In this document: in pieces, positions 8,942 through 57,056 of the stretch
Layout: the number at the start of each line of letters is the position of its first letter
How positions within the stretch are numbered: the first letter of the stretch is position 1
Source: an uncultured Gammaproteobacteria bacterium
GTDB taxonomy: Bacteria > Patescibacteriota > Patescibacteriia > Veblenbacterales > UBA10138
Direction of reading: 5' to 3'
Assembly: GCA_964348825.1 (NCBI GenBank)
Contig: CAYGDX010000002.1
Span: 80,609-144,608, forward strand
DNA length: 64,000 bases
Notes under the pieces: model-generated
Told to the model about the DNA's origin: nothing
Seen by the model: the letters and a program-made list of their open reading frames with translations, nothing else
Database searches by the model: none
Translations under genes and position numbers: made by a program

Positions 8942-9110
8942 GTTACTTCTTTAGTAGAAGTAACCAAGAATCGCAGGCCACAGTCTTCGGGTTTGAACAG
9001 TGCTCGTCGGACTCACTGGCTCGGGCTATGCACAGCGACCACAGCACGCCCGAGCCGTACGCTCGTCCGACTTCCGCTCTGTACAAACCCTACGACGAGG
9101 CCGCACGACG
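8942..9110. repeat. GC-rich ~170-bp element with imperfect terminal inverted repeats (MITE-like), copy A, reverse orientation
   Basis: Shares terminal sequences cgggtttgaacagtgctcgtc / cgctctgtacaaaccctacgacgagg and an internal ggctcgggc...gcccgagcc stem with copies at 39120-39395 and 56888-57056. Inserted between adk and map. Confidence 0.55.
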
Positions 9111-9178
9111 TTTTGGGAATTGGGATTTGGAATTTATTTAGGATTTAGATATTAGTGATTAGTAATTAATGATTTTTA

Positions 9179-9826
9179 TTACAACCCCAAGGCCATCACA
9201 ATACTATACGTCACCTCACTAATCCCCGGCTGCCCATCTATCGAAAGCAACGCGCCTTTACCACGATAAAATTCAAGTAAGGGTTCAGTTAGTTTGTGAT
9301 AATCATTTAAACGGGCACGAATCGCTTCAGGTGTATCATCTTTTCTAACTTCTAAACTACCACCGCAAGCACACAAACCGTTAGTGGGTGGTGGATTAAA
9401 CTGTTGATGATAAACTGTTCCACATTTTACACAAGTAAGCCGTCCGCCAATTCGCTTAATAGCTACTTCGTCAGATAATTGTAAATATATAATTTTTGTA
9501 TCAGGATAAAACTTAAATAAAAATTCCGCCTGTGATAAATTACGCGGGAAGCCATCGAGCACAAAACCATTGTCAGCGTCATTTTGTTTTAAACGTTCGG
9601 ACACCACCTGATTAGTTATTTCATCTGGCACTAAAATACCATTATCTATCAGAGATTTAACTTTACTACCAAGCTCTGTGCCGCTAGCTACAGCGGCCCT
9701 AAATATACTACCTGTGGCAATATGTGGCACACCAGTCGCCTGTGCCAATACTTTAGCCTGTGTGCCCTTGCCACTGCCTTGCGGCCCTAATAATACGTAT
9801 TGTTTAGTGTTTAACATAACAAGCAT
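9179..9826 (-). CDS. adk: adenylate kinase (zinc-lid type)
   Basis: P-loop GPQGSGKGTQ, LDGFPR, and Cys4 lid (CVKCG...CACGG). Canonical position after secY. Confidence 0.9.
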   Translation of the reverse strand: MLVMLNTKQYVLLGPQGSGKGTQAKVLAQATGVPHIATGSIFRAAVASGTELGSKVKSLIDNGILVPDEITNQVVSERLKQNDADNGFVLDGFPRNLSQAEFLFKFYPDTKIIYLQLSDEVAIKRIGGRLTCVKCGTVYHQQFNPPPTNGLCACGGSLEVRKDDTPEAIRARLNDYHKLTEPLLEFYRGKGALLSIDGQPGISEVTYSIVMALGL

Positions 9827-9871
9827 ATCTTACCTAAAATCAATAAAAAAATCTAGCCCTTGTCTTATACT

Positions 9872-9944
9872 CACTAAAACCCTAGAACACTTAAACACTA
9901 GAACACATTTTGTTTTAATGATCTAGGGTTCTAGTGTTCTAATG
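9872..9944. repeat. palindromic intergenic repeat, ctagaacac family, copy R3
   Basis: ccctagaacacttaaacactagaacac...gatctagggttctagtgttctaatg. Confidence 0.6.
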
Positions 9945-10060
9945 AAAACTATTTTAACACTATTACCTTACTTTTACTTAACACATCTATATATTCCCCC
10001 AAAAAACAAACAGTGCTATAATAAAGTTGCTCTTAAACCTAACCATTAATTTTATAGTTT

Positions 10061-11143
10061 ATGAAGCATTTTAAAATCACACTCGGCCTAGTGTTTTTAA
10101 TGGCCGCGGCTCTCTGGCTAACTGTACCAAAAATCACTTTGGCGGCCAGCGCTGATATTACTCTAAAAGGAGTAACTTTAGTCGCTCCTCCAGTTACTAA
10201 CCCTCTAACCCCAGTAGTGAACGAAGACAATAATAGTTTTGTTGTAAAAGCGGCTGATGCTACTAATATTTTAGTAAACTACACTGATCAAAATCTCACA
10301 ATTACACCACCAGTGCTAGGCACAAAAATCACCGGCACGCCTAAATCATTGGTTAAATTAACTGATTGGCTAGCTGGCGAAACCTTAAATATTAAAGGCA
10401 CTGTTACGTCCTATAGCGCCGGTCAATTAGTAATCAAGGCCTCAGAAATTGAATATAAATCAGCCGGTGTATCCACCAAAACCTTAAAAGGTACGGTAGA
10501 AAGAAAAGATGGAAATACTTTATATGTAGCAGTTAAGGATGGAAAATCATATGAGGTAGTACAAATTGACAATGTTGGTGTTGCGGGCAGTGGAACAACT
10601 ATAACTCCCGTTTCTTTAGCTGATACCGTGCCTGGCCGAAGTGTTCAAGTTACTCAATTATGGCGCGTGGTGCCACCAGCTACCCAATTTACCTATATCA
10701 AAACCTCTACAGTTAAAGTTTTACCAGTAGCAAGTGCCTCTAGTGTAAATCGTTTGGTAAAAATAGTTTACTCTGCTTCTGCAACACCACCATACTCCAA
10801 TGCGGTTACATATTCTAATACTACTGTTCCTAATACCACTGAATTAGGATTATATCCTAAAAACAAATTATCAATTTATAATAGCACTGATAATAATTTG
10901 TATTTAATAACGAAGGCTGGCGACCCATTGGCAGTGGATGATGGTAAAAAATTAAAACCAAATCTTAAACCGAATAGTTATACCTTGATCCCAGCTAAAG
11001 GCACTAAAACATTCCAAGTGCCAGATAGTATATTCGCAACCGGTAGCACTGCTGGCACAACTGTGGATTTTACTCTGTCCTTAAATTCTAGCGGTTCAGG
11101 TCCAGAAGTTCTACCAGTTTCAGTACGTGTAACCAAACCTTAA
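10061..11143 (+). CDS. secreted Thr/Ser/Val-rich hypothetical protein (signal peptide, likely cell-surface)
   Basis: N-terminal signal peptide (MKHFKITLGLVFLMAAALWLTVPKITLAASA), then a low-complexity beta-rich sequence. Opposite strand to the ribosomal operon it interrupts. Confidence 0.5.
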   Translation: MKHFKITLGLVFLMAAALWLTVPKITLAASADITLKGVTLVAPPVTNPLTPVVNEDNNSFVVKAADATNILVNYTDQNLTITPPVLGTKITGTPKSLVKLTDWLAGETLNIKGTVTSYSAGQLVIKASEIEYKSAGVSTKTLKGTVERKDGNTLYVAVKDGKSYEVVQIDNVGVAGSGTTITPVSLADTVPGRSVQVTQLWRVVPPATQFTYIKTSTVKVLPVASASSVNRLVKIVYSASATPPYSNAVTYSNTTVPNTTELGLYPKNKLSIYNSTDNNLYLITKAGDPLAVDDGKKLKPNLKPNSYTLIPAKGTKTFQVPDSIFATGSTAGTTVDFTLSLNSSGSGPEVLPVSVRVTKP

Positions 11144-11164
11144 GTAAATCTAAGGTAAGCTAAA

Positions 11165-11200
11165 AACAACCCTAAGCTACGTCGAGGGGTTGTTTTTTAT
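11165..11200 (+). terminator. rho-independent terminator of the 10061-11143 gene
   Basis: aacaaccc-N14-gggttgtt stem followed by a T-run. Confidence 0.5.
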
Positions 11201-11261
11201 TAAAAATAAAAAGGTCGTCTCAAATTTTAAAAACGACCTCCAGACACTGAATGTATTTTAC

Positions 11262-12011
11262 TTACTTAAACACAACAATCTCATTATATTTTGTTGCCGG
11301 TTCAAGCAAAGTAATAATTTTTTTAATTATTTCTTCTGGTTCTAAAAAATGACCAAACCTCATTATAAATGCTCGTTTCATTATTTCTACACTTACACCT
11401 CTTACTTTTGCTCGTTCTGAGATCTGCTTTTCGATTCTTTCACCCTTTATTGGACCAGGGCATAGAGCATATGCGCGCACGTCAATATTTCTATTTTTAT
11501 TAACACTGCCATACTCTTTTATCTCTGCATTAATAGTTTTAGATAGCCCGTTTACACCATGTTTAGTTATAGAATATCCCACCCTTTCAGCATATCCATT
11601 CAAACCAGCATTTGAGCTAATGTCTATAATTCGACCAAACCCAAATTTAAGCATATTTGGTAAGGCATACTTAGCTAGGAGTGTTGGCGCCAAAACATTA
11701 GTGTAAAACATTTGTAAAATTTCATCTGAATATATTTCACCGATTGATTTTGTTGGACCAAAATCAGCTGCAGCATTAATAAGTATCGAAGCGCTACTGG
11801 CATATTTGACAGCAAAAGACTCAACAGCTACACAATTAGACAAATCTAAACTAACCGCGGTTACTGAACATTTTTTAGAGAGCTCCTTTTGTACTAAACT
11901 TAATCTTTGAACATCGCGACCGGTAATCACCAAATTATTTTCCGCGGCCACTAAATTTTTAGCCACCATTTTTCCGATACCAGAAGAAGCACCTGTAATA
12001 ACTACATTCAT
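11262..12011 (-). CDS. SDR family oxidoreductase
   Basis: TGASSGIGK glycine motif and a YxxxK-type active-site region. Inserted between secY and adk. Confidence 0.7.
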   Translation of the reverse strand: MNVVITGASSGIGKMVAKNLVAAENNLVITGRDVQRLSLVQKELSKKCSVTAVSLDLSNCVAVESFAVKYASSASILINAAADFGPTKSIGEIYSDEILQMFYTNVLAPTLLAKYALPNMLKFGFGRIIDISSNAGLNGYAERVGYSITKHGVNGLSKTINAEIKEYGSVNKNRNIDVRAYALCPGPIKGERIEKQISERAKVRGVSVEIMKRAFIMRFGHFLEPEEIIKKIITLLEPATKYNEIVVFK

Positions 12012-12182
12012 ATTGTTAATCTCCGATTTTTGTTTAATTTACGAATTTCACTTTATCTTATCATAAAAACACATTTTGTCAATAGTATAAATTTGACTAA
12101 AATTAGCACAAAAAAGCCAGATATAATCTGGCCTTAAAAAACTAATAACTATTGGCTAGTGGCTAGTGGCTAGGAACTACAA

Positions 12183-13466
12183 TTACAATTCATCATAATC
12201 TCTCATCACTAGTTGGGCGTTGATTTGACGAATAGTTTCAATTACCACCGACACTACGATAAGCACTGAAGTACCACCAATCACGAGCAACTGCGAACCA
12301 GTGGCGTTTTGAAGTAACATTGGCATTACCGCAATCAGCGATAAAAATACCGCGCCAGGAAGTACCACCCGATTCATAGTTTGACTTAAAAATTCTACGG
12401 TCGTGCGCCCAGGCCGAATGCCTGGAATAAAACCACCTTGCTTTTGTAAATTCTCGGCAATTTGTTCGGGCTTGAAAACCACGGCGGTATAAAAATAGGT
12501 AAAACCAAATACCAATATAAAATATAAAATAGAGTAAAGTGGATGAGTTGGTTGAAAAACATTAATCACCCATTGACCAACACTTTGTAGCCAAACGGCA
12601 CCCGACTTAACTAGAAATTGAGCAATGAGTGGTGGAAAGAAAATCACGGAAATAGCAAAGATAATTGGAATCACACCGGCTTGCAACAACCTAAGTGGCA
12701 AATGAGTAGAAGCGCCACCAGAAGTGCGTGGTCCGTGAATCATTCGGGCATATTGCACTGGAATATTGCGCTGGGCCTCATTCACCACCACCACACTAAC
12801 AACTGTAATCAAAACCACCGCTACAAATAAAATTATATTAAAAATTTGTGAAGCATCTGTAGTAGTTACCGCAATTTGTTGAATTTGTTGGGGTAACCCA
12901 GCAATGATACCAGCAAAAATAAGAAGCGAAATGCCATTACCAATCTTCCGCTCCGAAATAATTTCCCCGAGCCACATTAAAAATACTGTACCAGCCGTAA
13001 TAGTAAGCAAGCTCAAAACCAAATCAAAACCACCCAAGGCCCCCACAATTTTGCCACTCCCAGCATTACGTAAAATAGCAATAAAACTATAGGCCTGCAG
13101 AACCGCGAGTGGTACAGTTAAAATACGAGTGTATTGATTTATTTTATGTTGGCCAGCTTCACCTTCTTTAGAAATTTCTTCTAAACGCGGCACAATCATC
13201 GTTAAAAGTTGAACAATGATTGAAGCGGTGATATATGGACCAACGCCAAGCATTACAATAGAAAAATTTTCAAGTCCGCCACCAGAAAGTAAATTTAAAA
13301 AACCTAAAAATTGATTCGATGAAAAAAAGTTACGTAAAGCCAAAGCGTCCACTCCTGGAATTGGAATATGGGCCGCTAAACGAAAAATACCGAGCATTAA
13401 AACCACAAAAAGCAAGCTCTTGCGTAAGTCGGGTGTTTGCCAAATTTCTCGAAGTTTATCAAACAT
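12183..13466 (-). CDS. secY: preprotein translocase subunit SecY
   Basis: 427 aa, 10-TM SecY signature. Follows rplO. Confidence 0.9.
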   Translation of the reverse strand: MFDKLREIWQTPDLRKSLLFVVLMLGIFRLAAHIPIPGVDALALRNFFSSNQFLGFLNLLSGGGLENFSIVMLGVGPYITASIIVQLLTMIVPRLEEISKEGEAGQHKINQYTRILTVPLAVLQAYSFIAILRNAGSGKIVGALGGFDLVLSLLTITAGTVFLMWLGEIISERKIGNGISLLIFAGIIAGLPQQIQQIAVTTTDASQIFNIILFVAVVLITVVSVVVVNEAQRNIPVQYARMIHGPRTSGGASTHLPLRLLQAGVIPIIFAISVIFFPPLIAQFLVKSGAVWLQSVGQWVINVFQPTHPLYSILYFILVFGFTYFYTAVVFKPEQIAENLQKQGGFIPGIRPGRTTVEFLSQTMNRVVLPGAVFLSLIAVMPMLLQNATGSQLLVIGGTSVLIVVSVVIETIRQINAQLVMRDYDEL

Positions 13467-13536
13467 AAAATTTTAAATCCGAAATCCGAAGCACTAAATC
13501 CGAAATTTTCGTATTTCGAATTTCGATATTCGAATT

Positions 13537-13983
13537 TTAACTAACTAATTCCACCTTTCCACCTGCGCTCTCAACTGCTTTAACCGCACCCTTGCTTGCC
13601 GCTTGCACCATTACGGTTAAATTAGCTGGCGCCTTACCCTGCCCAATCAATTTGACTGCTAAGTTGGCTTTATCAATTAAATCGTGCTTTTTTAATAACT
13701 TAGCATTAACTTTTACTCCAGCTGAAAACACTGCGAGATCGGCTACATACACTATTTGCATTTTATCATACTCACTCTTAAACCCGCGAACTTTTGGCAA
13801 ACGAGTAACAAAATGCTTAACTCCAAATTGAACCAAACCCTTACGCCCACCTTGACGCGCGCGCTGACCTTTAATACCACGAGTTGAATAAGCGCCATGA
13901 CCAGAACCAAGCCCTCTACCCAAACGCTTACGACGATGATGAGAACCTTTATTTGGTTTAATTGTATGGAGAGAAAGTGTCAT
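13537..13983 (-). CDS. rplO: 50S ribosomal protein L15
   Basis: Gly/Arg-rich N-terminus typical of L15. Position between rpsE and secY with no L30 gene. Confidence 0.9.
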   Translation of the reverse strand: MTLSLHTIKPNKGSHHRRKRLGRGLGSGHGAYSTRGIKGQRARQGGRKGLVQFGVKHFVTRLPKVRGFKSEYDKMQIVYVADLAVFSAGVKVNAKLLKKHDLIDKANLAVKLIGQGKAPANLTVMVQAASKGAVKAVESAGGKVELVS

Positions 13984-14114
13984 AAAAGTTTAAATCCTAA
14001 ATTCTAATTTCTAAATCCTAAATAAATTTTGAAAATTTTAAAATTGAAAATTTATTGAAAATTGTAAATTGATAATTGAAAATTTTAATTAATTTTTACT
14101 CTAAACTCTTACTC

Positions 14115-14660
14115 TTACTTAACTAACTTGAAACTAGCGAAGGCCTTAAGTACGGCGCGCACATTATTTACTTTATTGTTACTACCTAAAATTTTACTTA
14201 CCACATTTGGTACACCAGCGGCCTCCAGTACTACTCGCACCGGACCGCCCGCAATAATACCAGTACCAACTGGAGCTGGCTTAAGCATTACTTCAGCACT
14301 TTTATATTTTACTGTAATTTGATGAGGAATTGTAGCCCCGCGTAGTGGCGCAATTATCAAACTTTTGCGAGCACGAGCGGCAGCTTTATCAACTGCTAAA
14401 CTCACATCGGCACCCTTGGCAAGCCCCATACCAACCTTACCTTTATGATTACCCACAATCACAAGGGCACGAAAACGCATACGCTTACCACCCGCCATCA
14501 CGCGAGTAACTCGGGCGAGTTCCAAAACTTTTTGATCAAATTCGTCGTCAACTCGCGCACGATTGCCACCACGCCCGCCACCCCGTGAACCACCACGCCC
14601 GCCCGTACCAAAACGAGTTTGTGTCTGTGATTGTGATTTTGTACTTGCTTCCATATTCAT
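14115..14660 (-). CDS. rpsE: 30S ribosomal protein S5 (with RGG-rich N-terminal extension)
   Basis: S5 dsRBD and C-domain motifs, plus a GRGGSRGGGRGG N-terminal extension. Confidence 0.9.
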   Translation of the reverse strand: MNMEASTKSQSQTQTRFGTGGRGGSRGGGRGGNRARVDDEFDQKVLELARVTRVMAGGKRMRFRALVIVGNHKGKVGMGLAKGADVSLAVDKAAARARKSLIIAPLRGATIPHQITVKYKSAEVMLKPAPVGTGIIAGGPVRVVLEAAGVPNVVSKILGSNNKVNNVRAVLKAFASFKLVK

Positions 14661-14682
14661 AGTTTTAGTTATTAGTTCAAAG

Positions 14683-14763
14683 TTTCATTAGAACACTAGA
14701 GCATTAGAACACTTTATCAATTTTTTGTTTTTATGTTCTAGTGATTTAATGTTCTAATGAAAT
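14683..14763. repeat. palindromic intergenic repeat, ctagaacac family, copy R4 (between rpsE and rplR)
   Basis: Nearly identical to copy R6 at 19682-19760. Confidence 0.6.
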
Positions 14764-14767
14764 TAAC

Positions 14768-15127
14768 TTAAAATATTAAACCTGCTTCGCGAGCCGACTC
14801 AGCCAAAGCTTTCACCCGACCGTGATAAGCTACTCCACCACGATCAAATACTACTTCTTTAACTCCCTTACTTTGTGCTTTATCACCAATTAACTTACCA
14901 ACCTTACTTGCTATTTCTACTGGAGTTTTACCTTTTTTATCACCCGCAACTAATTCTTTATCGCAAGCTCCCACCAGTGTTTTACCAATTTCATCATTAA
15001 TCACTTGGGCGGTAATGTGTTTTAAACTACGAAAAACCACCAAACGCGGACGTAAAGTTGTACCAGTCAAACGAGACCGAATTCGGCCTTTTCTTTTTTC
15101 TCTTGAACTGCGAATATCTTTTGACAT
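14768..15127 (-). CDS. rplR: 50S ribosomal protein L18
   Basis: Homology pattern and operon position. Confidence 0.9.
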
Positions 15128-15154
15128 ATAATTAAAATCCTAAATCCTAAAAAA

Positions 15155-15712
15155 TTATTTAGCGCCGGCTGATTTTACAACCTTACCAGCTTTACGACGA
15201 ATAATTTCATCGGCATATTTAATACCCTTACCTTTGTATGGCTCTGGTTCTTTAAGTAGTCTAATTTCAGCCGCCACCTGACCAACTTGTTCTTTGGAAG
15301 CGCCAGAAATTGCGATAAACATATTTTTTTCAACCACCGCCTTAACTCCAACTGGTAAATTATAACGAACAGGATGAGAAAATCCTAAATTAAGCACCAA
15401 AGTATTACCTTCTAACGCAACCTTAAAGCCAATACCAGATAATTCTAATTTTTTAGTAAACCCCTCACTTACACCTTTAATGGCGTTGGCTACCAATTGA
15501 CGAGCCAACCCCCAAGCCGCCCGTGCCTTACTACTATCCAACTCACTAATAGTTATTTTAATTACAGAATCAGCCTGCTCAACTTTAACAAATTTTGGTA
15601 AAGTCACTCGCACTTTACCTTGTGGACCTTGCGCCAAAAAAACACGAGCTGCTTCTTCAGCTAAAGATGTACCGGTTGGAATATTAATTGGTAGTTTACC
15701 TAAACGAGACAT
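15155..15712 (-). CDS. rplF: 50S ribosomal protein L6
   Basis: Homology pattern and operon position. Confidence 0.9.
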   Translation of the reverse strand: MSRLGKLPINIPTGTSLAEEAARVFLAQGPQGKVRVTLPKFVKVEQADSVIKITISELDSSKARAAWGLARQLVANAIKGVSEGFTKKLELSGIGFKVALEGNTLVLNLGFSHPVRYNLPVGVKAVVEKNMFIAISGASKEQVGQVAAEIRLLKEPEPYKGKGIKYADEIIRRKAGKVVKSAGAK

Positions 15713-15753
15713 AATATTTAAAATCTTAATATCTAAATCCGAAATCCTAAAAA

Positions 15754-16140
15754 TTAAAAAATTTCACAAAGCACTTCACCACCTAAAGATTTTTTCTTAG
15801 CTTCTTTGTTAGTCATTAACCCTTGTGAAGTAGAAACCACTGCTATTCCCAAACCTGACAAAACATTAGGCAGTTCCGCCGCCTTAACATAAAGTCTGCG
15901 CCCTGGCTTACTAATTCTTTTGATTCCCTTAATCTTTGATTGACCATTTTGATATGACAATTCCAAAACTAAATTACGATATGGATCAGCGGCTTCTGAC
16001 ACTTTGGCTACATAACCTTCGCGCGCCAAAACATCAGCTAATTTAGCCTTAAGGGTAGAGTATGGTACTGAAACTTGCACTTTGCGAGCTAAAGCACCAT
16101 TTCTGATACGTGTAAGCATGTCACTAATTGGATCGGTCAT
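15754..16140 (-). CDS. rpsH: 30S ribosomal protein S8
   Basis: Homology pattern and operon position. Confidence 0.9.
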   Translation of the reverse strand: MTDPISDMLTRIRNGALARKVQVSVPYSTLKAKLADVLAREGYVAKVSEAADPYRNLVLELSYQNGQSKIKGIKRISKPGRRLYVKAAELPNVLSGLGIAVVSTSQGLMTNKEAKKKSLGGEVLCEIF

Positions 16141-16243
16141 AATATAAATTTATAACTATTAGTTCTTAGTTCCTAGCCACTAGTTCCTAATCATCAGTTC
16201 TACTCAACTCAAGAACTAGGAACTATTGGCTAGTGGCTTAATA

Positions 16244-16438
16244 TTACCAACTGGCCTTTCTAATACCAGGAATTTCTCCATTGTTAGCCAGTTCCCTAAA
16301 GCAAATACGACACATATTAAAATCTCTCATATAACCATGTTTGCGACCACAACGCCAACAACGTCTAACTATCCGTGTTGAATACTTGGCATTAGTAAGT
16401 GAGTTAAAACTTTTTATTTCTTGAACTTTGGTAGACAT
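16244..16438 (-). CDS. rpsZ: 30S ribosomal protein S14 type Z (zinc-binding)
   Basis: 64 aa with CWRCGRK...CRIC zinc motif. Located between rplE and rpsH. Confidence 0.9.
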
Positions 16439-16485
16439 AAGTATTTAAATTCTAAATCCGAAATCCTAAAAAAATAATTTAAAAA

Positions 16486-17037
16486 TTAATTAGCAAAAGG
16501 AAAACCTAATAATTCAAACAAACGACGACCTAATTTCTGTGAACGAGCATTGGTGGTAATAACCACCTCCAAACCATGTAAACTTTCAATTTCATCTGAT
16601 TTAATTTCTGGAAAAACTGTATGCTCACGAAAACCAAGTGATAAATTACCTTGTTTATCAACTGACTTAATTGATAACCCACGAAAATCACGCACTCGCG
16701 GGAAAGTAACACGTAGTAATTTAGTTAGGAATTCGTTCATCCGTGCGCCGCGCATTGTTACTACCACACCAACTGCCATACCTTCACGAATTTTAAAATT
16801 CGAAATTGATTTACGAGCCAATGCGAGTACTGGTTTTTGACCAGTAATACGTTCTAAAGTTTTTACCACTACTTCTTGTGCTTTGGTATCTTTTTTAGAA
16901 GCATTGAGGCCAACATTTATTACTACTTTCATTAAGCGAGGCACGGCTAAACTATTAGTTAAACCAAACTCTGACTTAAGGCTCGGTACTACCACCTGCT
17001 TATAAACTTCCATTAAATTTTTAGATGTTTGATTCAT
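16486..17037 (-). CDS. rplE: 50S ribosomal protein L5
   Basis: Homology pattern and operon position. Confidence 0.9.
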   Translation of the reverse strand: MNQTSKNLMEVYKQVVVPSLKSEFGLTNSLAVPRLMKVVINVGLNASKKDTKAQEVVVKTLERITGQKPVLALARKSISNFKIREGMAVGVVVTMRGARMNEFLTKLLRVTFPRVRDFRGLSIKSVDKQGNLSLGFREHTVFPEIKSDEIESLHGLEVVITTNARSQKLGRRLFELLGFPFAN

Positions 17038-17093
17038 AAATAGTTATTAGTTTGAAATTTTCGAATTTCGATATTAGAATTTCGAATTTTTAA

Positions 17094-17408
17094 TTATAAT
17101 ACCCCGCCACACTTATGACAAGTACGAGATTTAATTCCTTCGCTATTAATTTTAAAACGTGGACGACAATTTTTTCCGCATTGTGGACAAACAATCGCTA
17201 ACTTACTAAGTTTAAGTGGCGCTGCAAATTGCACACGATTACCAGTACGACCCGCCTGCCCAGTACGCAAATGTTTGAAACGTAAATTAATACCTTCCAC
17301 TACTGCGAGATCAAGGGCAGGAAAAACTTGTGTCACTTTCCCCTGCTTACCCAAATCACGGCCAGCCAACACTTTTACCAAATCATTTTTTTTAATTTTA
17401 AGTGCCAT
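17094..17408 (-). CDS. rplX: 50S ribosomal protein L24 with C-terminal Cys4 zinc-ribbon-like tail
   Basis: KOW motif N-terminus. The C-terminus carries CPQCGKNC...CHKCGG. Confidence 0.85.
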   Translation of the reverse strand: MALKIKKNDLVKVLAGRDLGKQGKVTQVFPALDLAVVEGINLRFKHLRTGQAGRTGNRVQFAAPLKLSKLAIVCPQCGKNCRPRFKINSEGIKSRTCHKCGGVL

Positions 17409-17444
17409 ATAATATAAAATTCGAAATCAGAAATCCTAAAAAAA

Positions 17445-17816
17445 TTATAAAACCTCAGGAGCTAAAGAAATAATCTTTTGAAAACCACCAGCCCGTAGTT
17501 CACGAGCCACTGGTCCAAATACACGAGTACCTTTTGGTTCTTTGGTTTTTTTATCAATCAACACTACCGCATTATCATCAAATCTGATATAAGAGCCGTC
17601 AACTCTGCGAGTTTCTTTATGAGTTCGTACGAGCACCGCATGCAGAACTTCACTTTTTTTAACCATACCATGTGGCTCAGCCTCTTTCACTACTACAGTA
17701 ATAATATCACCTAAGTAGCCATAACGTTTTTGATAACCACCTAAAACTCTAATACACTGCACCTTTTTGGCACCGGTATTATCAGCTACTTTTAACATTG
17801 ATCTAAGTTGAACCAT
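17445..17816 (-). CDS. rplN: 50S ribosomal protein L14
   Basis: Homology pattern. First gene of the spc unit. Confidence 0.9.
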
Positions 17817-17857
17817 AAAATCTTCAGATTTTACCCCGAGCCAAGTCGAGGGGTGAT
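17817..17857 (-). promoter_or_regulatory. conserved structured 5' leader motif immediately upstream of rplN
   Basis: On the mRNA strand: ACCCCUCGACUUGGCUCGGGGUAAAAUCUGAAGAUUUUAUG. A near-identical motif lies upstream of rpsC (19587-19630). Confidence 0.45.
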
Positions 17858-17867
17858 TAAAAAACTG

Positions 17868-18125
17868 TTAAACCTTATTTAAAATACGAAAACGCTTAGT
17901 ACGTGAACGCGGAGCGCAAGCTTCAATTTCAACTTTATCACCTAATTTAGAAATATTTTTTGCATCATCGACTGCAAAACGCTTGGAAACTACAAAACGC
18001 TTTTTGTATTTAGGATGAACTTTCACAATTTCAACCCGAACCACGCGGGTTTGTGGCATTTTATCTGACACTACCACACCGGTTAAGCGTCTATATTGTG
18101 GCTCAGTTTTAACAGGTTGAATCAT
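17868..18125 (-). CDS. rpsQ: 30S ribosomal protein S17
   Basis: Homology pattern and position. Confidence 0.9.
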   Translation of the reverse strand: MIQPVKTEPQYRRLTGVVVSDKMPQTRVVRVEIVKVHPKYKKRFVVSKRFAVDDAKNISKLGDKVEIEACAPRSRTKRFRILNKV

Positions 18126-18149
18126 AAAAATTAATTCTAAATTCTAAAA

Positions 18150-18344
18150 TTATTTATTTTTGGAAATTAAAGTCAAAAGTTGCGCGACTTGTTGTCTAAC
18201 TTTTCGTATTGCCCTAACATCTTTTAAATCTTGTCGTGCGATTCTTGATTTAAGTGTAGCTAATTCTTGTCGCGCTTCACTTAATTTATTAGTCAATTCT
18301 GTTTTATTTAAATTTAGTAAATCTTTAAACTTTGGAGTTGGCAT
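18150..18344 (-). CDS. rpmC: 50S ribosomal protein L29
   Basis: Homology pattern and position. Confidence 0.85.
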   Translation of the reverse strand: MPTPKFKDLLNLNKTELTNKLSEARQELATLKSRIARQDLKDVRAIRKVRQQVAQLLTLISKNK

Positions 18345-18360
18345 AAATTTGATTATTAGA

Positions 18361-18450
18361 TTACATTAGAACATTAGATCACTAGAACATAAAAGCAAAA
18401 TTTTATAAGTTGTTTCAATGTTCTAGTGTTCTAGTGTTTAAATGTTCTTA
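18361..18450. repeat. palindromic intergenic repeat, ctagaacac family, copy R5 (between rpmC and rplP)
   Basis: ttacattagaacattagatcactagaacat...caatgttctagtgttctagtg. Confidence 0.6.
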
Positions 18451-18459
18451 CTGAATAAT

Positions 18460-18870
18460 TTACTGTTTAGTTATAAAAATAGTAGCGACTGGTAATTTAT
18501 GTTTGGCAAGCCTAAGGGCTGAAGCAGCTAACGCTTGTGGTACACCATCTATTTCAAATAAAATCGTACCTGGTTTAACTGGAGCAACATAATGATCCAC
18601 AGCACCCTTACCACCACCCATACGAATTTCATTACCTTTTACCGATACTGATTTATCAGGGAATACTCGAATCCAAACTTTACCCCTGCGTTGTAAATGA
18701 CCGGTAATAGCCCGACGTGAAGCTTCTAACTGACGTGATGTTAGCCAACCAGCCTCAGTCGCTTTTAATCCAAAACCACCAAAATTAAGTTCGGTTTTAC
18801 GAGTCGCCCGACCCTTAATTTGGTCACCGCGTTGCTGTTTTCGATATTTTACTTTTTTAGGTAACAACAT
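18460..18870 (-). CDS. rplP: 50S ribosomal protein L16
   Basis: Homology pattern and position. Confidence 0.9.
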   Translation of the reverse strand: MLLPKKVKYRKQQRGDQIKGRATRKTELNFGGFGLKATEAGWLTSRQLEASRRAITGHLQRRGKVWIRVFPDKSVSVKGNEIRMGGGKGAVDHYVAPVKPGTILFEIDGVPQALAASALRLAKHKLPVATIFITKQ

Positions 18871-18905
18871 AAAGTTTAAAATCCTAAATCTTACAAAACA
18901 ATGAA

Positions 18906-19586
18906 TTAATTCTTACCCGAATTACTTGATTGGCTAGCGGTATCATGCGGTGAACCAAAGAATTCTCCTTTATTAATCCAAACTTTTATTCCTAAACCAC
19001 CATAGGTCATTTGCGCTTTTGTTCTAGCATAATCTACCTCAGCTCTAATAGTATGAAGTGGCACTGTGCCAACCGTTAATTTTTCACTCCGCGCAATTTC
19101 TGAGCCATTCAAACGACCACCAATCATTACTTTTACTCCGAGTGCTCCCGCCTTCATTACTTGATCAATCGCTTGTTTCATCACCCTACGGAAAGGCAAT
19201 CTTTTTTCAAGTTCCAGCGCCATTGCCTCTGCTACTACTTCAGCTGATAACATTGGGTTAGCTATTTCTTGAATGTTAAGTTTGACATTTTTCTCGCCAG
19301 TTGAAAAATCAGCTTTAATTTTCTTTTTTAATTCTTCAGCCTGAGCACCACTGCGACCAATCACGAGCCCTGGCTTAGCAGTAAAAATTGTTACTGTTAA
19401 ACTAGAAGCGCCACGCTCTACTTCAATTCGTGATACGGAAGCACCGCGTAATTGTTTTTTTAAAAAACGACGTAATTTTACATCTTGCTCAAGTAATTTA
19501 GCGTATGATTTACGCGCAAACCATTTGGAGCGCCAGCTGTAAACTGTGCCGAGGCGAAAACTTGTTGGATGAACTTTCTGTCCCAT
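18906..19586 (-). CDS. rpsC: 30S ribosomal protein S3
   Basis: KH domain plus S3 C-domain. Confidence 0.9.
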   Translation of the reverse strand: MGQKVHPTSFRLGTVYSWRSKWFARKSYAKLLEQDVKLRRFLKKQLRGASVSRIEVERGASSLTVTIFTAKPGLVIGRSGAQAEELKKKIKADFSTGEKNVKLNIQEIANPMLSAEVVAEAMALELEKRLPFRRVMKQAIDQVMKAGALGVKVMIGGRLNGSEIARSEKLTVGTVPLHTIRAEVDYARTKAQMTYGGLGIKVWINKGEFFGSPHDTASQSSNSGKN

Positions 19587-19630
19587 AAAATCTTTAGATT
19601 TTACCCCGAGCTAAAGTCGAGGGGTTACTT
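19587..19630 (-). promoter_or_regulatory. conserved structured 5' leader motif immediately upstream of rpsC (second copy)
   Basis: mRNA strand: ACCCCUCGACUUUAGCUCGGGGUAAAAUCUAAAGAUUUUAUG. Same motif as upstream of rplN. Confidence 0.45.
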
Positions 19631-19681
19631 GTAAAATTTAACTTGAAACTCTAAATTTAATTGTTAGTTCTTAGTTCTATG

Positions 19682-19760
19682 TTTCACTAGAACACTAGAG
19701 CATTAGAACACTTTATCAATTTTTTGTTTTTATGTTCTAGTGATTTAATGTTCTAGTGAA
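19682..19760. repeat. palindromic intergenic repeat, ctagaacac family, copy R6 (between rpsC and rplV)
   Basis: Nearly identical to R4. Confidence 0.6.
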
Positions 19761-19761
19761 C

Positions 19762-20118
19762 TTAATTTTTAGGCGTTTTTTTAGGAGCTTCATTGCTTAA
19801 AACCACATTAATATGGCAAGTTGGTTTACGTATTGGTGTCGCTCGTCCTTGCGCTCGTGGTGTAAATCTTTTAAGCACTGGGCCTTGTCCAACTGTAATA
19901 GTTTTTATCCACCACTCACCTTCTTTGCTTTGACTTTTAACCTCAGCATTGGCTTGAGCTGATTTAATTAATTTAAAAACTGCTCGAGCCGAAGTTTTTG
20001 GTAAATAACTAAGCTTAAGTAAGGCGGTAGACACTTTATGTCCGCGCACAGTATCAATCACCAACTTAACTTTATTGGGTGATTGCCGTAAGTAACTTAA
20101 TTTGGCTGTACTTTCCAT
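19762..20118 (-). CDS. rplV: 50S ribosomal protein L22
   Basis: Homology pattern and position. Confidence 0.9.
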   Translation of the reverse strand: MESTAKLSYLRQSPNKVKLVIDTVRGHKVSTALLKLSYLPKTSARAVFKLIKSAQANAEVKSQSKEGEWWIKTITVGQGPVLKRFTPRAQGRATPIRKPTCHINVVLSNEAPKKTPKN

Positions 20119-20126
20119 AAAATAAA

Positions 20127-20474
20127 TTATTTAGCTTTAGGTTTTTCAGGTGCGGCTTGAGTAGCTTTAGCTTTATCAGCTTCAGCACTAGCCGCAGCCG
20201 CAGCTTGTTCACGCGCCATTTTGCCGCCATGACCAGTAAATTTACGAGTTGGTGAAAATTCTCCAAGTTTGTGCCCAACCATATTTTCTACCACTATAAC
20301 AGGTAAATGATTTTTACCATTATGCACACCAAATGTAAATCCAATCATTTCAGGTGTAATAGTTGAATCACGCGACCAAGTTTTAATTGGTGTTTTGTCA
20401 CCAACTTTAACTTTACTCATTTTTTTGAGTAACGATGGGTCAACAAATGGTCCTTTTTTCAAACTACGTGACAT
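20127..20474 (-). CDS. rpsS: 30S ribosomal protein S19 (Ala/Lys-rich C-terminal extension)
   Basis: S19 core plus a ~25-aa AK-rich tail. Confidence 0.9.
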
Positions 20475-20528
20475 AAAATTTTAAATCCTAAATTCTAAAT
20501 TCGAAATCCTAAATAATTAAAAATAAAC

Positions 20529-21365
20529 TTAAACTCGTTTCGGACGACGGGAAACTATAAATTTGTTCGAAGATTTATTAACAGAACGTGTTGGCACACC
20601 TAAAGCTGGTTTACCCCACGGTGTTTTTGGATGTTTCATACCAATTGGATTGTGACCTTCACCGCCACCATGTGGGTGATCAACCGGATTCATTGCTTTA
20701 CCGCGAACACTGGGGCGAAAGCCTTGGTGACGTCTCCGACCGGCTGTACCTAAACGTACATTTAAATGGTCTATATTACAAACTTGACCAATGGTAGCCG
20801 AACAATTATCTGACACTAATCTAATTTCACCTGAAGGCATTTTAAGACGAGCAAAACCTGCTTCGACTGACATCACTAAAATTTGACTACCCGCTGATTT
20901 GGCGATCATTCCGCCATCACCCGGTGTAAGTTCTACATCATGTACTGCAAGTCCAGCTGGCACGTGTTTCAATAATAAACGATTACCACAAGTTGCCGTA
21001 ATTACTTCACGACTTGATAAAACTTCCATACCCACCTTTAACCCTTCGGGTGCAATAATATAGGTTTTAACACCATCTCTATACTGAAGTAAGGCTAAAT
21101 TAGCTGTACGTTGTGGATCATAACTTATGGCAATAACCGAAGCCTTCATATCATACTTATTACGCTTTGAATCCACAATACGCAATAACCGTTTAGCCCC
21201 ACCACCACGATGTCGCACTGTAATTTTACCTTGATTGTTGCGTCCGGCTGATTTACTTTGGCCTTTTACCAAACTTTTAACCACAGCATTCTTTGAAATA
21301 CCGCGCACCAAAACACTGGCGTGACGCCGTCCGGGAGTTGTAGGTTGGTATAATTTAATCGCCAT
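20529..21365 (-). CDS. rplB: 50S ribosomal protein L2
   Basis: Homology pattern and position. Confidence 0.95.
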
Positions 21366-21383
21366 AGAATTTAAATCCTAAAA

Positions 21384-21749
21384 TTATTTACTGATTGCAT
21401 TTAAAGCTAAAGTTTGACCAGGAGCAAGTCGAGCAATAATGTGCACTCGTCTCGCACGCCGACCAGATTGTCTACCACGTCGTACAATTTTACCTGGCAA
21501 ATTAATTCTATTCAAACCAACCACTCGTACTCCAAAACGTGATTCAATTGCTTTTTTAACTGTTAATTTATTAATATTAGGTCTAACTGCAAACATATAT
21601 TGCCCTTGCGCCTCAAGTTGACTAGCTTTTTCGGACAGCACAGGTGTAAGCAATAAAGTCATATCGGTTTTAATACTTTTAACCGCTGGGCTGACTTTAG
21701 TATTAACCGCCTTTGTATTGTCGGTTGATTTTTTAGGAAATAGTGACAT
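21384..21749 (-). CDS. rplW: 50S ribosomal protein L23 (N-terminal extension)
   Basis: Homology pattern and position. Confidence 0.85.
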   Translation of the reverse strand: MSLFPKKSTDNTKAVNTKVSPAVKSIKTDMTLLLTPVLSEKASQLEAQGQYMFAVRPNINKLTVKKAIESRFGVRVVGLNRINLPGKIVRRGRQSGRRARRVHIIARLAPGQTLALNAISK

Positions 21750-21770
21750 AATATTTAAAAATCCGAAATT

Positions 21771-22439
21771 CTAAAGTTTATTTTTTCCAACTTTTAAATT
21801 TTTTAAGCAATTGGTAACCAATTCAGTTAAAGAACTTTCAGAAATTAACAAACTTTGATTTTGTAAACCAGAATAAGCTGTAAAAGCAGTTAAAGGAGCG
21901 CAAGTTAATTTTGGTAAATTACGAAAAGCTAGTGCGGTATTTTTTTCTTGACTCGATAGTAAAAGTAAAGCTGACTTACCGGCGCGCACTTTTAAATTTT
22001 TAAGCCATGAAGACGCTACTTTTGTCTTTGATACCTCTGGCCAAACTTCCACGGCGGTAACTTTACCTGATTTCAAATAATCAGCCAGCACCATAGCGCG
22101 AGCTTGGCTACGCAAACTTTCTGGCGTGCGTTTTACATAATTACGATCTTTTCGTGGACCAAATACCACACCACCACCCACCCAAATCGGTGAACGAGTA
22201 GAACCATGGCGAGCGCGGCCTGTACCTTTTTGTTTCCATGGTTTTCTACCACCGCCCGATACTTCACCACGAGTTTTAGTATGAGCAGTGCCGGCCCTAG
22301 CGCCTGAAGCATCACCTACTACCACTTGATGAACTAAGCTTTTATTAATTTTTAAAGACAATAACGCTTCCGGCAAAGGTATTTCTTTAACTACCTCGCC
22401 TTGAATATTATAAATTGATAAAACCTTTACTTCACTCAT
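21771..22439 (-). CDS. rplD: 50S ribosomal protein L4
   Basis: Homology pattern and position. Confidence 0.9.
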
Positions 22440-22443
22440 AAAA

Positions 22444-23064
22444 TTATTTACCTATTTCGTTTTGTAAATAAATTAAACCATTACGTGCACCAGGTACAGC
22501 ACCTTTTACCATTATTTCATTTAATTCTGGATTAACTCCCATAATTTCCAAATTATGAACTGTTACTTTATCAACACCCATATGACCAGCCATTCTTTTG
22601 CCTTTCATCACATGTTGTTTACCACCAGCACCGATACTTCCTGGCATACGTAATTGATCTTTATGGCCATGAGTGGAAGGATGACCATGGAAACCGTGAC
22701 GCTTAACTACACCTTGAAAACCACGCCCTTTGGAAATACCTTGCACCAAAACCTTATCACCCACTTTAAACTGAGTAACATCAAATTTCTGACCAATTGT
22801 TAAATCTTTAATTTCAATTTTAAATTCACGCAAATAACGAACGGAAGTTACCCCAGCTGATTTAATATGTCCTAAAATTGCTTGCTTAGTATGACGAAGT
22901 TTACCAAAACCAAGTTGTACTGATTCATACCCATCGCGCTCAACAGTTTTTATTTGTGTCACCACAGAAGGCTCAGCTTTCAAAACTGTTACTGGCACCA
23001 CTGTGCCATCAGCCAAGAAAACTTGCGTCATATTTTGTTTTATAGCTAGTAAAATCTGAGACAT
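22444..23064 (-). CDS. rplC: 50S ribosomal protein L3
   Basis: Homology pattern and position. Confidence 0.9.
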   Translation of the reverse strand: MSQILLAIKQNMTQVFLADGTVVPVTVLKAEPSVVTQIKTVERDGYESVQLGFGKLRHTKQAILGHIKSAGVTSVRYLREFKIEIKDLTIGQKFDVTQFKVGDKVLVQGISKGRGFQGVVKRHGFHGHPSTHGHKDQLRMPGSIGAGGKQHVMKGKRMAGHMGVDKVTVHNLEIMGVNPELNEIMVKGAVPGARNGLIYLQNEIGK

Positions 23065-48959: not shown

Positions 48960-48969
48960 GTAAGACTCT

Positions 48970-49052
48970 TCACTAGAACATTAGATCACTAGATCATAAG
49001 AACAAAAAGTTTTTTATTAATAATGTTCTAATGTTTAAATGTTTTAGTGTTC
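48970..49052. repeat. palindromic intergenic repeat, ctagaacac family, copy R7
   Basis: Near-exact reverse complement of copy R8 (57640-57727). Confidence 0.6.
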
Positions 49053-54947: not shown

Positions 54948-55058
54948 CTAAACTGGCTTTTTATTTCATCTAGGTTGACAAAAATACTGTTTGGAGTTAA
55001 AGTATTAAAAAATAAATCAAAATTAAAAAACAAAATTATTCACTATTCTGGAGTTAAA

Positions 55059-55517
55059 ATGAAACTCTCTATAATTGTACCTTCAAAAAAATGGCCCAAT
55101 AAAAATCGCTATGACATCTGCCAGATTATTTCCCTCTTGTTAAATAAACCAGTGATATTTTTAAGGCATGAATTAATGGAAGTGGTTAAAGATGAAAAAA
55201 AAGAACAACAAAAAAAAATTACCTTCTTGATTATGAAGGGCAATGAAACTGACAAACAAACCATAATCACTCAAAGTGGGTTAGAAGTATCGCCGGTTGA
55301 TGGACAGATGATTTTGATTACAGCCAAACACACTCATCCATCAATTCCACCTTTTCGAGAATACATTGAACAAATCAGAGGAATAGTTAATTTATTGGTT
55401 TTCCCGATTGCACAAACCAACCTGCAATGCGATGAACCATCTTATCTCGGTTGTTTTGGTGGATCAACTGAATTTGACCTTTTATCTAAGAACGGTTTTA
55501 TTGCTGAAATCGTTTGA
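55059..55517 (+). CDS. hypothetical protein
   Basis: ORF with a GGAG RBS 5 nt upstream of the internal Met (MKLSIIV). The track start at 54915 is probably an artefact. Divergent from the sigma operon. Confidence 0.4.
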   Translation: MKLSIIVPSKKWPNKNRYDICQIISLLLNKPVIFLRHELMEVVKDEKKEQQKKITFLIMKGNETDKQTIITQSGLEVSPVDGQMILITAKHTHPSIPPFREYIEQIRGIVNLLVFPIAQTNLQCDEPSYLGCFGGSTEFDLLSKNGFIAEIV

Positions 55518-55593
55518 AATTCTAAATAGACCTAAATGTTCACAAAGTCGCGCACCAATCAATTCGGACGCGACTTTTTTATTTTCTTAAAAT

Positions 55594-56787
55594 TTACCGA
55601 CGACCACGAAAGGGGCGTCTTGGCGCACTGCCACGTGGGACATCTCTTTCCACATAAGCACTAGCTCGCGCGGGTGGCAAAACTGGCAATTTAGAAAGTG
55701 GTAAAGCCAAACGAATTAACCTTTCAATGCCTTGCACATCACTTTTTTGGTCAGGCGTGGCAAAAGAAATCGCATGACCAATTTGCCCAGCCCGGCCAGT
55801 ACGACCAATGCGGTGGACATAATCTTCTGGACTCTCTGGTAGATCATAATTCAAAACTAGTTCAATACCTTTGACATCTATCCCCCGCGCCGCAATATCA
55901 GTGGCTACCAAAATTCTATATTTACCATTACGAAAACCATTCATCGCTTCTATTCTTTGACCAAGTGAACGATTAGAATGTATTTCTACTGCACTGTGCC
56001 CGAGCGCGCGTATAATTACAGCAATTTTTTTAGCGCCAAATTTAGTACGCGAGAAAATTAAAATTGAACCACGATATTCATTTAATATTTTCTCAAGTAA
56101 TCGCGGCTTATCATTTTTCTGCACACAATAAAGCTCTTGCGTAACCTTATCAATAGTGGTGCCGGGCGGAGCAATTTCCACCCGCAGTGGTAATTTCATA
56201 TGTGATTGTGCCAGTGCTACAATATCGCGCGGCATAGTAGCAGAAAAAAGCAGTGTTTGCCTGTCTTTGGGCACGGCTTGAACTATTTTTTTAAGTTGCG
56301 GTGCAAACCCCATATCAAGCATTCGATCAGCTTCATCGAGCACCAATATTCCCACACTACTAAGTGAAATAGATTTTTGTTCTAAATGATCAATAATTCG
56401 CCCCGGTGTACCAATAATAATATAAGGATTTTTTTGCAAAGCGTAAATTTGACGATTGATTGATTCGCCACCAATTATTACTTCGGCCCGAATTTTAAGT
56501 GGCCAACCAATTTTTTGCAGTGTTTCGTGCACTTGAAAAGCCAATTCACGAGTAGGCAAAACTACCAAGCCGTATTTACCATTTAAAGCCGCTTGGATTA
56601 AAGGGATGCCAAAAGCTAAGGTTTTTCCGGTACCAGTTTGAGCAATACCAATAAGATCCTTACCATCTAAGGCTGGTGGAATAGATTTTTCCTGAATTGG
56701 AGTCGGAACTGTGAAATTAAGCTTATCAAGTATGGCCAAAATGTTTGGCGCGATTCCAAGATTATAAAAACCAGATGTTGTATTCAT
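55594..56787 (-). CDS. DEAD-box ATP-dependent RNA helicase (RG-rich C-tail)
   Basis: Q-motif, AQTGTGKT, PTRELA, DEAD, SAT, and HRIGRTGRAG. Confidence 0.9.
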   Translation of the reverse strand: MNTTSGFYNLGIAPNILAILDKLNFTVPTPIQEKSIPPALDGKDLIGIAQTGTGKTLAFGIPLIQAALNGKYGLVVLPTRELAFQVHETLQKIGWPLKIRAEVIIGGESINRQIYALQKNPYIIIGTPGRIIDHLEQKSISLSSVGILVLDEADRMLDMGFAPQLKKIVQAVPKDRQTLLFSATMPRDIVALAQSHMKLPLRVEIAPPGTTIDKVTQELYCVQKNDKPRLLEKILNEYRGSILIFSRTKFGAKKIAVIIRALGHSAVEIHSNRSLGQRIEAMNGFRNGKYRILVATDIAARGIDVKGIELVLNYDLPESPEDYVHRIGRTGRAGQIGHAISFATPDQKSDVQGIERLIRLALPLSKLPVLPPARASAYVERDVPRGSAPRRPFRGRR

Positions 56788-56887
56788 GCCGCCACTATAA
56801 CACAGTTAGTGAAAATAAGATAGTGACGTTTAAATCCGAAATACGAATATCGAAATCCGAAATAAATCCCAATGACAAAAATCCAAA

Positions 56888-57056
56888 AGTTGTGCGGCCT
56901 CGTCGTAGGGTTTGTACAGAGCGGAAGTTCCGCGAATGTCCGGCTCGGGCGTGTTTGTGGTCGCTTGGCATAGCTTGAGCCAGATCGTTTGACGAGCACT
57001 GTTCAAACCCGGAGACCGAGGCGGCGATTTTGTGTTACTTTATAAAAAGTAACAAA
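56888..57056. repeat. GC-rich TIR element (MITE-like), copy C
   Basis: cctcgtcgtagggtttgtacagagcgg...gacgagcactgttcaaacccggagaccgaggcggcgattttgtgttactttataaaaagtaac. Confidence 0.55.

Follow-up and report, generated by a model that had tools for sequence, protein, structure and literature searches.

Element E, a GC-rich palindromic repeat, occurs three times in the window (the whole 64-kb stretch of contig CAYGDX010000002.1 analyzed here, from a Patescibacteria genome), and probably represents a lineage-specific, non-autonomous, non-coding palindromic mobile repeat of ~175 bp. E is mobile, as judged from its presence and absence at orthologous sites in a sister genome, and its base pairing is strongly maintained by compensatory change. 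An earlier reading made from the letters of the window alone (the sequence-only reading) had noticed three such copies and proposed either transposable elements of the miniature inverted-repeat kind (MITEs) or a family of structured small RNAs (sRNAs). Here, we examine the fold, mobility, target context and distribution of E, and weigh these two proposals against other explanations.

Copies of E in the window

The three copies, c1, c2 and c3 (Table 1; E is oriented throughout as in c2 and c3), were joined by a repeat finder and are homologous, each matching the nhmmer profile of the family with an E-value between 1e-50 and 1e-53 in a search of the 64-kb window. The sequence-only reading was thus right to place related copies between adk and map, between comEC and prfB, and next to a PIN-domain gene. 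The same profile detected no further copy within the window. Exact matches among the three copies comprised shared blocks of 22 nt and of 18–21 nt. The GC content of the palindromic cores, described earlier as far above background, was 60–63% compared to 37.4% for the whole window. E measures 172–180 bp, or 194–278 bp when it carries nested inserts; the extra segment seen in the middle copy, c2, and estimated at ~100 bp, is indeed present, its exact size being 102 nt.

Fold and covariation

The 5' end of E lies ~8–10 nt ahead of the motif GC(C/G)GCC, and its 3' end lies past a hairpin, GTTAC...GTAAC, and an A-run. A GC-rich imperfect palindrome of ~40 bp takes up the first ~130 nt; in the consensus fold it makes a single rod of five helices: P1 (7 bp), P1b (3 bp), P2 (11 bp + 2 bp), P3 (~8 bp) and P4 (9 bp). 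This rod is capped by a conserved 22-nt apical loop, CGTGTYTGTGGTCGCTNNGCATAG, and its internal loops are also conserved. On its 3' side stands a 9-bp AT hairpin followed by the A-run, and the two ends of E are thus unlike. Conserved sequence, made up of this hairpin and A-run, continues for ~45 nt past the 3' arm, and no instance of the AT hairpin apart from E was found in the window or in related loci. The motifs gggtttgtacag and ctgttcaaaccc, which had been taken for terminal inverted repeats, turned out to form P2, an internal helix that is enclosed by two more helices and has the AT hairpin after it. The GTAG at the foot of P2 presumably recalls the REP motif.

We then assessed pairing in 14 full copies, aligned after removal of nested inserts, against 500 shuffles. 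Standard pairs occupied 94.8% of stem cells, compared to 88.3 ± 0.6% in the shuffled alignments, and 18 pairs had changed on both sides, compared to 8.4 ± 1.8 after shuffling; none of the 500 shuffles reached either value. When the 3' partners were slid by 1–3 columns, only 26–43% of cells remained paired. Covariation was heavy in P3 and P4. The sequence of P2 was near-invariant, with one copy having GTATTTG/CAAATAC in place of GGGTTTG/CAAACCC, and the stem of the AT hairpin varied as GTTAC/GTAAC, CCAC/GTGG and CTAC/GTAG. The internal stem ggctcgggc/gcccgagcc and the gttac...gtaac hairpin, both picked out in the sequence-only reading, are therefore real and covary across copies, and the covariation check that it had asked for came out in favor of maintained compensatory pairing. 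Among variable pairs on the E strand, G-U pairs outnumbered A-C pairs by 11 to 4, and the E strand folded better than its complement in 11 of the 14 copies, a weak sign that one strand matters. Together, these results strongly indicate that base pairing in E is maintained by compensatory change.

Mobility and conservation across genomes

To the window genome we compared that of a sister organism, represented by the metagenome-assembled genome (MAG) H52-bin160_1 (Hainich H52, Patescibacteria). Between the two organisms, RecA and EF-P show 97% identity, while four-fold sites in recA, efp and two other orthologs are 52–57% identical, that is, silent sites are saturated. Two orthologous spacers with conserved flanks could be compared. 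Downstream of recA, the spacer in the H52 genome is 460 nt long and holds a copy of E with a big insert plus a second hairpin repeat, while the orthologous spacer in the window genome is 216 nt long and lacks both. Conversely, the PIN-DEAD spacer is 293 nt long and holds c3 in the window genome, while it is 158 nt long without E in the H52 organism; E is also missing from this spacer in a third relative. Since the two spacers are filled and empty in opposite directions, E is mobile. The suggestion that the adk-map copy had been inserted there was likewise upheld, with a spacer of 271 nt in the window genome compared to 12, -4 and 1 nt in three relatives.

The copies in the window are 87–92% identical to their nearest copy in the other genome, compared to 76–85% identical to other copies in the window. 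Judged against the saturated silent sites, the sequence of E stayed far more conserved than neutral DNA. In addition, the variant with the insert sits at loci that are unrelated between the two genomes; the insert of c2 is found again in a sister-genome copy (L009) at a different locus, with 87% identity over 327 nt. The reciprocal sites, the copy identities across genomes and the insert variant at unrelated loci together show that the family has kept moving or was exchanged.

The termini of the c2 insert are those of a family of 20-nt mini-palindromes. The stand-alone 20-nt GC palindrome, CCTGCCTGCCGGYAGGCAGG, is also nested in copies of E at three different loop positions, and all four nested-insertion positions (4/4) fall in loops of the E fold.

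Taxonomic range

A fourth copy was detected by profile match in the window organism, ~3.1 kb outside the window (Table 1), giving four copies in ~80 kb. It has AGCGCG in place of AGAGCG, carries a nested mini-palindrome, and shares its variant 3' P1 arm, CCCTATACCTGCGCGGCGA, with one sister-genome copy. A scan of one genome per GTDB species gave 12 exact-pattern matches in H52-bin160_1, and the nhmmer profile added two more copies in loci of this MAG, where the total is thus at least 14, several of them at contig ends. Across the two sister Patescibacteria genomes, E is present in at least 18 copies. Two exact-pattern matches in unrelated bacteria were attributed to chance.

Outside these two genomes, no copy was recovered. 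In the window organism, whose DNA is in ENA assembly ERZ27247837, Map has nearest homologs of 63–66% identity, and no E was found in 56 kb from three such relatives. A RecA cluster holds only the window organism and the Hainich H52 organism as sampled members of the clade, the next RecA relative being 81% identical. The JGI metagenome scan yielded no true copies, its five matches being chance hits in contigs of 47–65% GC, and E was found neither in the IMG/VR viral scan nor by BLAST in plasmids, phages and E. coli genomes. With Rfam 15, the window at gathering threshold gave three tRNAs only and no match to E; for c3, Rfam matches at E-values up to 10 were chance matches confined to its AT-rich flank. 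The covariance-model check against known non-coding RNA families thus left the sequence-only reading intact on this point. Within the collections searched, E is a narrow, lineage-specific family confined to two sister genomes.

Target context

We next considered where E lands. In the window, AAATCC(N)AAAT arrays occupy 14 or more intergenic regions, and the motif aaatcccaa, reported earlier to abut all copies, is one unit of such an array. It does adjoin E, but only on the 5' side, and both empty orthologous sites hold arrays of the same type near where the 5' end of E sits in the filled site. Since aaatcccaa is a widespread array unit, lies 5' only and is present at empty sites, it is neither part of E nor the target-site duplication that had been suspected; the arrays are a pre-existing target context of E.

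For target-site duplications in general, we scanned 16 × 26 boundary offsets at lengths of 2–9 nt in 15 copies. No copy-specific direct repeat of ≥3 nt was found at any of these 3,328 boundary/length combinations, the best result being a dinucleotide in 5/15 copies compared to 1.6 expected.

As an observation in its own right, the AAATCC(T/G/C)AAAT arrays have a 7-nt period, are common to the sister genome, and read TTTAGGATTTAAA(N5-6)ATG on the sense strand directly ahead of many start codons. Leader, ribosome-binding context and protein-binding site are candidate roles for them.

Gene context

Every copy of E seen is intergenic, and both orientations occur. In the 13 copies for which neighbors were assigned from open reading frames (ORFs), the upstream gene was divergent in nine and co-directional in four, and the downstream gene was convergent in nine and co-directional in four; two copies lie between convergent gene ends. 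The neighbors are unrelated to one another: adk/map, comEC/prfB, helicase/PIN, Dus, NUDIX, glycosyltransferase, pilin, CCA enzyme, MFS transporter, KsgA and PGI. We therefore saw neither the fixed orientation nor the functionally related set of downstream genes that characterize a cis-regulatory RNA such as a riboswitch or leader. In the three window copies, no sigma-70-like site was found upstream of E, although promoters of Patescibacteria may differ, and no terminator-like site was found at its end. The AT hairpin has a T-run before it and an A-run after it on both strands. It is neither a pre-existing target nor a terminator, as it never occurs without E and has T-run and A-run each on the wrong side.

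Several other identities were rejected. A protein-coding or small toxin ORF is ruled out by a 1-nt indel and inserts of 19–20 nt that break the frames, and by substitutions that are compensatory rather than synonymous. ARAGORN was negative for a tRNA-like element, and the Rfam searches speak against a known RNA family. An integron attC site or a retron is contradicted by dispersed copies in both orientations with no integrase or reverse transcriptase nearby, and a guide-RNA-like element by the lack of a hypervariable unpaired segment, variation being located in the stems.

Interpretation and alternative explanations

Both proposals of the sequence-only reading survive in part. From the MITE proposal, we retain non-autonomous mobility, in view of dispersed copies, reciprocal sites, nested repeats and unrelated neighbors, but not MITE anatomy, given the lack of terminal inverted repeats and of a duplication and the asymmetric 3' AT tail. 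The structured-RNA proposal is right about maintained pairing, but a dedicated RNA gene does not agree with the absence of an Rfam match, of promoter and terminator, and of a fixed orientation.

How E moves can be proposed only tentatively. The enzyme that copies or moves E would be encoded at another place in the genome and may recognize a folded single strand, as REP/REPIN-RAYT and IS200/IS605-type systems do, rather than being a cut-and-paste transposase of the DDE type. This idea was suggested by the absence of terminal repeats and of a duplication, the unlike ends, the weak strand bias in wobble pairs and the nested insertions found only in loops. E would land preferentially beside the AAATCC-type arrays that fill the spacers of this lineage. 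Operon read-through, for example across adk-E-map, would produce a transcript with the same rod. Processing of the mRNA might change as a result, a side effect and not the raison d'être of E.

Several points weigh against a mobile repeat of this kind. In ~150 kb of the two genomes, from which 20 window and 20 MAG ORFs were scanned, we saw neither a transposase nor a RAYT-type Y1 enzyme nor a reverse transcriptase; Y1_Tnp had no match in these 40 ORFs and was not among the Pfam domains precomputed for six loci, and no autonomous element with E ends was present in the ~150 kb read. At both empty sites, the AT-rich spacer has either diverged or given way to other sequence, so that insertion boundaries are not fixed to the base, and duplication of a fixed A-rich target could still have taken place. 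The strand bias in wobble pairs (11 compared to 4) is weak. Conservation far above neutral, the conserved apical loop and the conserved non-Watson-Crick internal loops are features that one would equally expect of an RNA with its own function, and compensatory change could come about without selection, through repair between the arms of a DNA hairpin.

Some of these points lead to a different view, in which E would be a structured RNA or single-stranded DNA with an activity of its own, for example as the recognition scaffold of a hairpin-dependent mobilization system in Patescibacteria or as a domesticated multicopy RNA binding a protein of the host. This would fit the extreme conservation of E relative to neutral sites, its invariant apical loop and the confinement of insertions to loops. 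We give it an outside chance; if true, no system of this sort would have been described before in the streamlined genomes of the candidate phyla radiation.

An sRNA gene family is unlikely. Here, the E strand would be transcribed as a rod-shaped RNA of ~150–175 nt that, for instance, binds a protein through P2 and the apical loop, with spread being secondary. The strong covariation, the invariant 22-nt apical loop and internal loops (GUA opposite GAA/GGA), the confinement of nested insertions to loops, and the cross-genome conservation far above neutral all agree with it, as do the wobble pairs that favor the E strand and its better folding in 11/14 copies; lacking an Rfam match, the family would be new. 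However, promoter-like and terminator-like sites are not conserved at either end of E, the upstream flanks have only the generic arrays in common, and several copies lie 19–36 nt away from the start codon of a divergent gene or immediately follow a gene in an operon, leaving little room for signals of their own. Moreover, only two sister genomes have the family, which is missing in the next relatives, its positions turn over completely between these two genomes, and insertions of 20 nt and 102 nt are tolerated.

A classical MITE, that is, a deletion derivative of a DDE insertion sequence that moves by cut-and-paste through terminal inverted repeats and makes duplications, seems to us a poor candidate. 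The two arms of the E palindrome do form an imperfect inverted repeat of ~33 nt (TGCCGCC...GGGTTTGTACAGAGCG and CGAGCACTGTTCAAACCC...GGCGGCGA) and are the most invariant segments, as expected of transposase-binding sites. E also fits the MITE features listed in PMC3184786 in being small, multicopy, intergenic and mobile and in having no ORF. Yet the inverted repeats are not terminal, being followed by a ~45-nt 3' tail that is never found alone; the 3,328 combinations held no copy-specific direct repeat of ≥3 nt; the fully paired and covarying interior would be needless for a transposase that binds ends; and no parent insertion sequence was seen in the ~150 kb read.

Least of all do we favor a cis element maintained by the host, such as an insulator, a transcription terminator or a hairpin for mRNA stability, similar to SPRITE or to ERIC in its effect on mRNA decay and kept for shaping the expression of flanking genes, which is very unlikely: E is always intergenic, has a convergent gene end downstream in 9/13 copies, shows an A-tract (CAAAAG) ahead of P1 and a U-rich tract (GAUUUUGUG or GAUUCUUGG) after it, and is unavoidably read through in adk-E-map and prfB-E-comEC, but the terminator scan was negative at its ends, its hairpin is ~10 times longer than a terminator stem, it occurs in either orientation and even inside an essential operon, orthologous sister-genome spacers do without it, and such a function leaves the conserved AT hairpin tail and apical loop unexplained.

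Other repeats and neighboring features

Four copies of E (c2 and the sister-genome copies L004, L009 and L013c) are followed, ~25 nt on, by a dispersed hairpin, GGATTCCCGC...GCGGGAATGACA. The family of this hairpin, (T)CTGGATTCCCGC-loop-GCGGGAATGACA, occurs at four places in the window (Table 1) and at nine in the MAG loci, often ~25 nt downstream of E, with a loop of 4 nt in most copies and of 34–36 nt in others. A further class consists of AT-rich palindromic repeats of 80–105 nt, built of CACTAGAACA-type 8-mers about an AAAAAG/CTTTTT center and shared with the sister genome; one arm pair is 98% complementary over 83 nt, and one copy pair has 93% identity over 105 nt. Small repeats thus form a mosaic in the intergenic DNA of this lineage, and E is the largest family among them.

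The 38 nt ahead of the start codon of the DEAD-box helicase gene (CTATCTTATTTTCACTAACTGTGTTATAGTGGCGGC) are identical in two organisms and nearly so in a third, with silent sites saturated, and probably constitute a conserved leader or promoter. The secY-adk gap of the window holds a short-chain dehydrogenase gene and an opposite-strand ORF of 360 aa that matches nothing in Pfam; in one relative this gap contains a single opposite-strand ORF, and in another it contains none. In the sister genome, leucyl-tRNA synthetase contains an internal NUDIX domain at residues 402–521. Finally, spacers between ribosomal-protein genes average ~68 nt, compared to ~10 nt in relatives with Map 63–66% identical. 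Short repeat modules have enlarged the intergenic DNA of the lineage, an uncommon trait for a genome that is streamlined.

Table 1. Coordinates of E copies, their helices and other features (window positions unless a locus is named)
Feature	Coordinates	Strand	Description
E copy c1	8939-9114	-	Between adk and map, oriented like both; E-value 3e-53
c1 flanking gene adk	9179-9826	-	
c1 flanking gene map	8146-8907	-	
c1 helix P2	9076-9090 with 8989-9003		
c1 AT hairpin	8942-8964		
AAATCC(N)AAAT array	9115-9165	-	Adjoins c1 5' end; not part of E
E copy c2	39111-39386	+	Between comEC start (39091, -) and prfB stop (39449, -); antisense to both; E-value 2e-50
c2 nested insert, 102 nt	39198-39299	+	In apical loop; AT-rich interior closed by CCCGCCTGCCG...CGGCGGGCAGG
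c2 AT hairpin	39363-39382		
TTTAAATCCCAATTTTAGAC motif	39092-39110	+	Between comEC start codon and c2 5' end
Hairpin repeat GGATTCCCGCCTCCGCGGGAATGACA	39409-39434	+	Separate dispersed repeat, 25 nt past c2
E copy c3	56884-57056	+	Flanked by start of DEAD-box helicase gene (56787, -) and stop of PIN gene (57081, -), antisense to these two; E-value 2e-53
c3 P1	56893-56899 with 57020-57026		
c3 P1b	56902-56904 with 57014-57016		
c3 P2	56908-56922 with 56996-57010		
c3 P3	56927-56937 with 56983-56993		
c3 P4	56942-56950 with 56973-56981		
c3 apical loop	56951-56972		
c3 AT hairpin	57034-57053		
AAATCC-type array	56830-56883	+	Adjoins c3 5' end; same type kept in empty orthologous spacer
Fourth E copy of window organism	L025:6037-6220		~3.1 kb ahead of window position 1, between cation ATPase gene and small ORF; profile match
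20-nt GC palindrome CCTGCCTGCCGGYAGGCAGG	25558-25577, 27899-27918, 37642-37662		Stand-alone; resembles REP elements
Dispersed hairpin family	28517-28536, 37602-37621, 39411-39430, 60690-60709		(T)CTGGATTCCCGC-loop-GCGGGAATGACA
7-nt-period AAATCC(T/G/C)AAAT arrays	5701-5768, 13458-13516, 13975-14042, 15704-15765, 20466-20533, 23056-23123, 27750-27815, 29059-29126, 56817-56882, 57599-57645, others		
AT-rich palindromic repeats	48969-49051 / 57645-57727; 14665-14769 / 19664-19768; 7979-8088, 9864-9947, 18346-18455		80-105 nt
Conserved 38-nt stretch	56788-56826; L032:9962-10000; L031:614-652		Ahead of DEAD-box helicase start codon
secY-adk gap	9827-12182		
Ribosomal-protein genes	12000-24000		
Leucyl-tRNA synthetase gene	L007:228-3134		Sister genome

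Comparison with known systems and significance

A full-text literature search found no report of such repeats in Patescibacteria. E is a new family of a kind already known (MITE/REPIN/ERIC-like), not a known RNA gene, and it belongs to none of the families tested. It resembles REP/REPIN-RAYT systems (PMC3116915, PMC3337134) in being non-autonomous, GC-rich and extragenic, with two inverted arms that form a long hairpin, in its many copies without duplication or classical terminal repeats, and in its narrow, persistent, lineage-specific distribution; its genome also has REP-like 20-nt GC palindromes. Two features of a REPIN, inverted GC-rich arms folding as a hairpin and the lack of a duplication, are found in E; membership would further depend on a single-copy RAYT (Y1 transposase) gene in the genome, which in such systems usually has the repeats on its flanks. 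It differs in its ~130-nt palindrome with an asymmetric 45-nt AT hairpin tail, its 22-nt apical loop and its Patescibacteria host, and no RAYT gene was seen among the 40 ORFs scanned and the Pfam lists of six loci.

With ERIC/IRU elements of Enterobacteriaceae (~127 bp; PMC3184786), E shares a similar size, an imperfect palindrome, a strictly intergenic position in either orientation, frequent co-transcription with neighbors, variants with internal insertions, and a hairpin that can act on mRNA. There is no sequence similarity, however, and E has the 3' AT hairpin; the terminal inverted repeats, duplications and flanking TA reported for ERIC-type elements (PMC3184786) are all lacking in E. Correia/NEMIS, RUP and other MITEs (PMC3184786, PMC10969869) are likewise small, ORF-less, multicopy intergenic long hairpins whose site occupancy varies between related genomes, and E agrees with MITEs in being small, multicopy and intergenic without a transposase ORF. 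Unlike in these elements, terminal inverted repeats and duplications were tested in E and not found, and no cognate insertion sequence is known.

PATEs derived from IS200/IS605 elements would, by analogy, resemble E in their unlike ends with hairpins near each and in having no duplication or terminal repeat, and their strand-specific, single-strand mechanism would fit the wobble bias of E. In E, by contrast, no TnpA/TnpB gene was seen in the DNA read and no conserved target tetranucleotide is defined; we take the resemblance to be mechanistic only. Palindromic elements of Rickettsia (RPE) are reported to insert in frame into protein-coding genes, while every copy of E seen is intergenic. Like E, they are palindromic repeats of similar size (~105–146 bp) spreading in a small, reduced genome (PMC3184786).

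E introduces no new principle; other phyla are well known to carry small palindromic repeats between their genes. Patescibacteria genomes are small and usually tightly packed, and the ribosomal-protein operon spacers of this lineage are ~7 times longer than those of its relatives. E is useful as a strain-typing marker and, with many copies at contig ends, it breaks MAG assemblies. It is also a natural starting point toward finding the mobilizing enzyme, and offers a tangible example of small mobile DNA that is active in a reduced genome, probably that of a symbiont.

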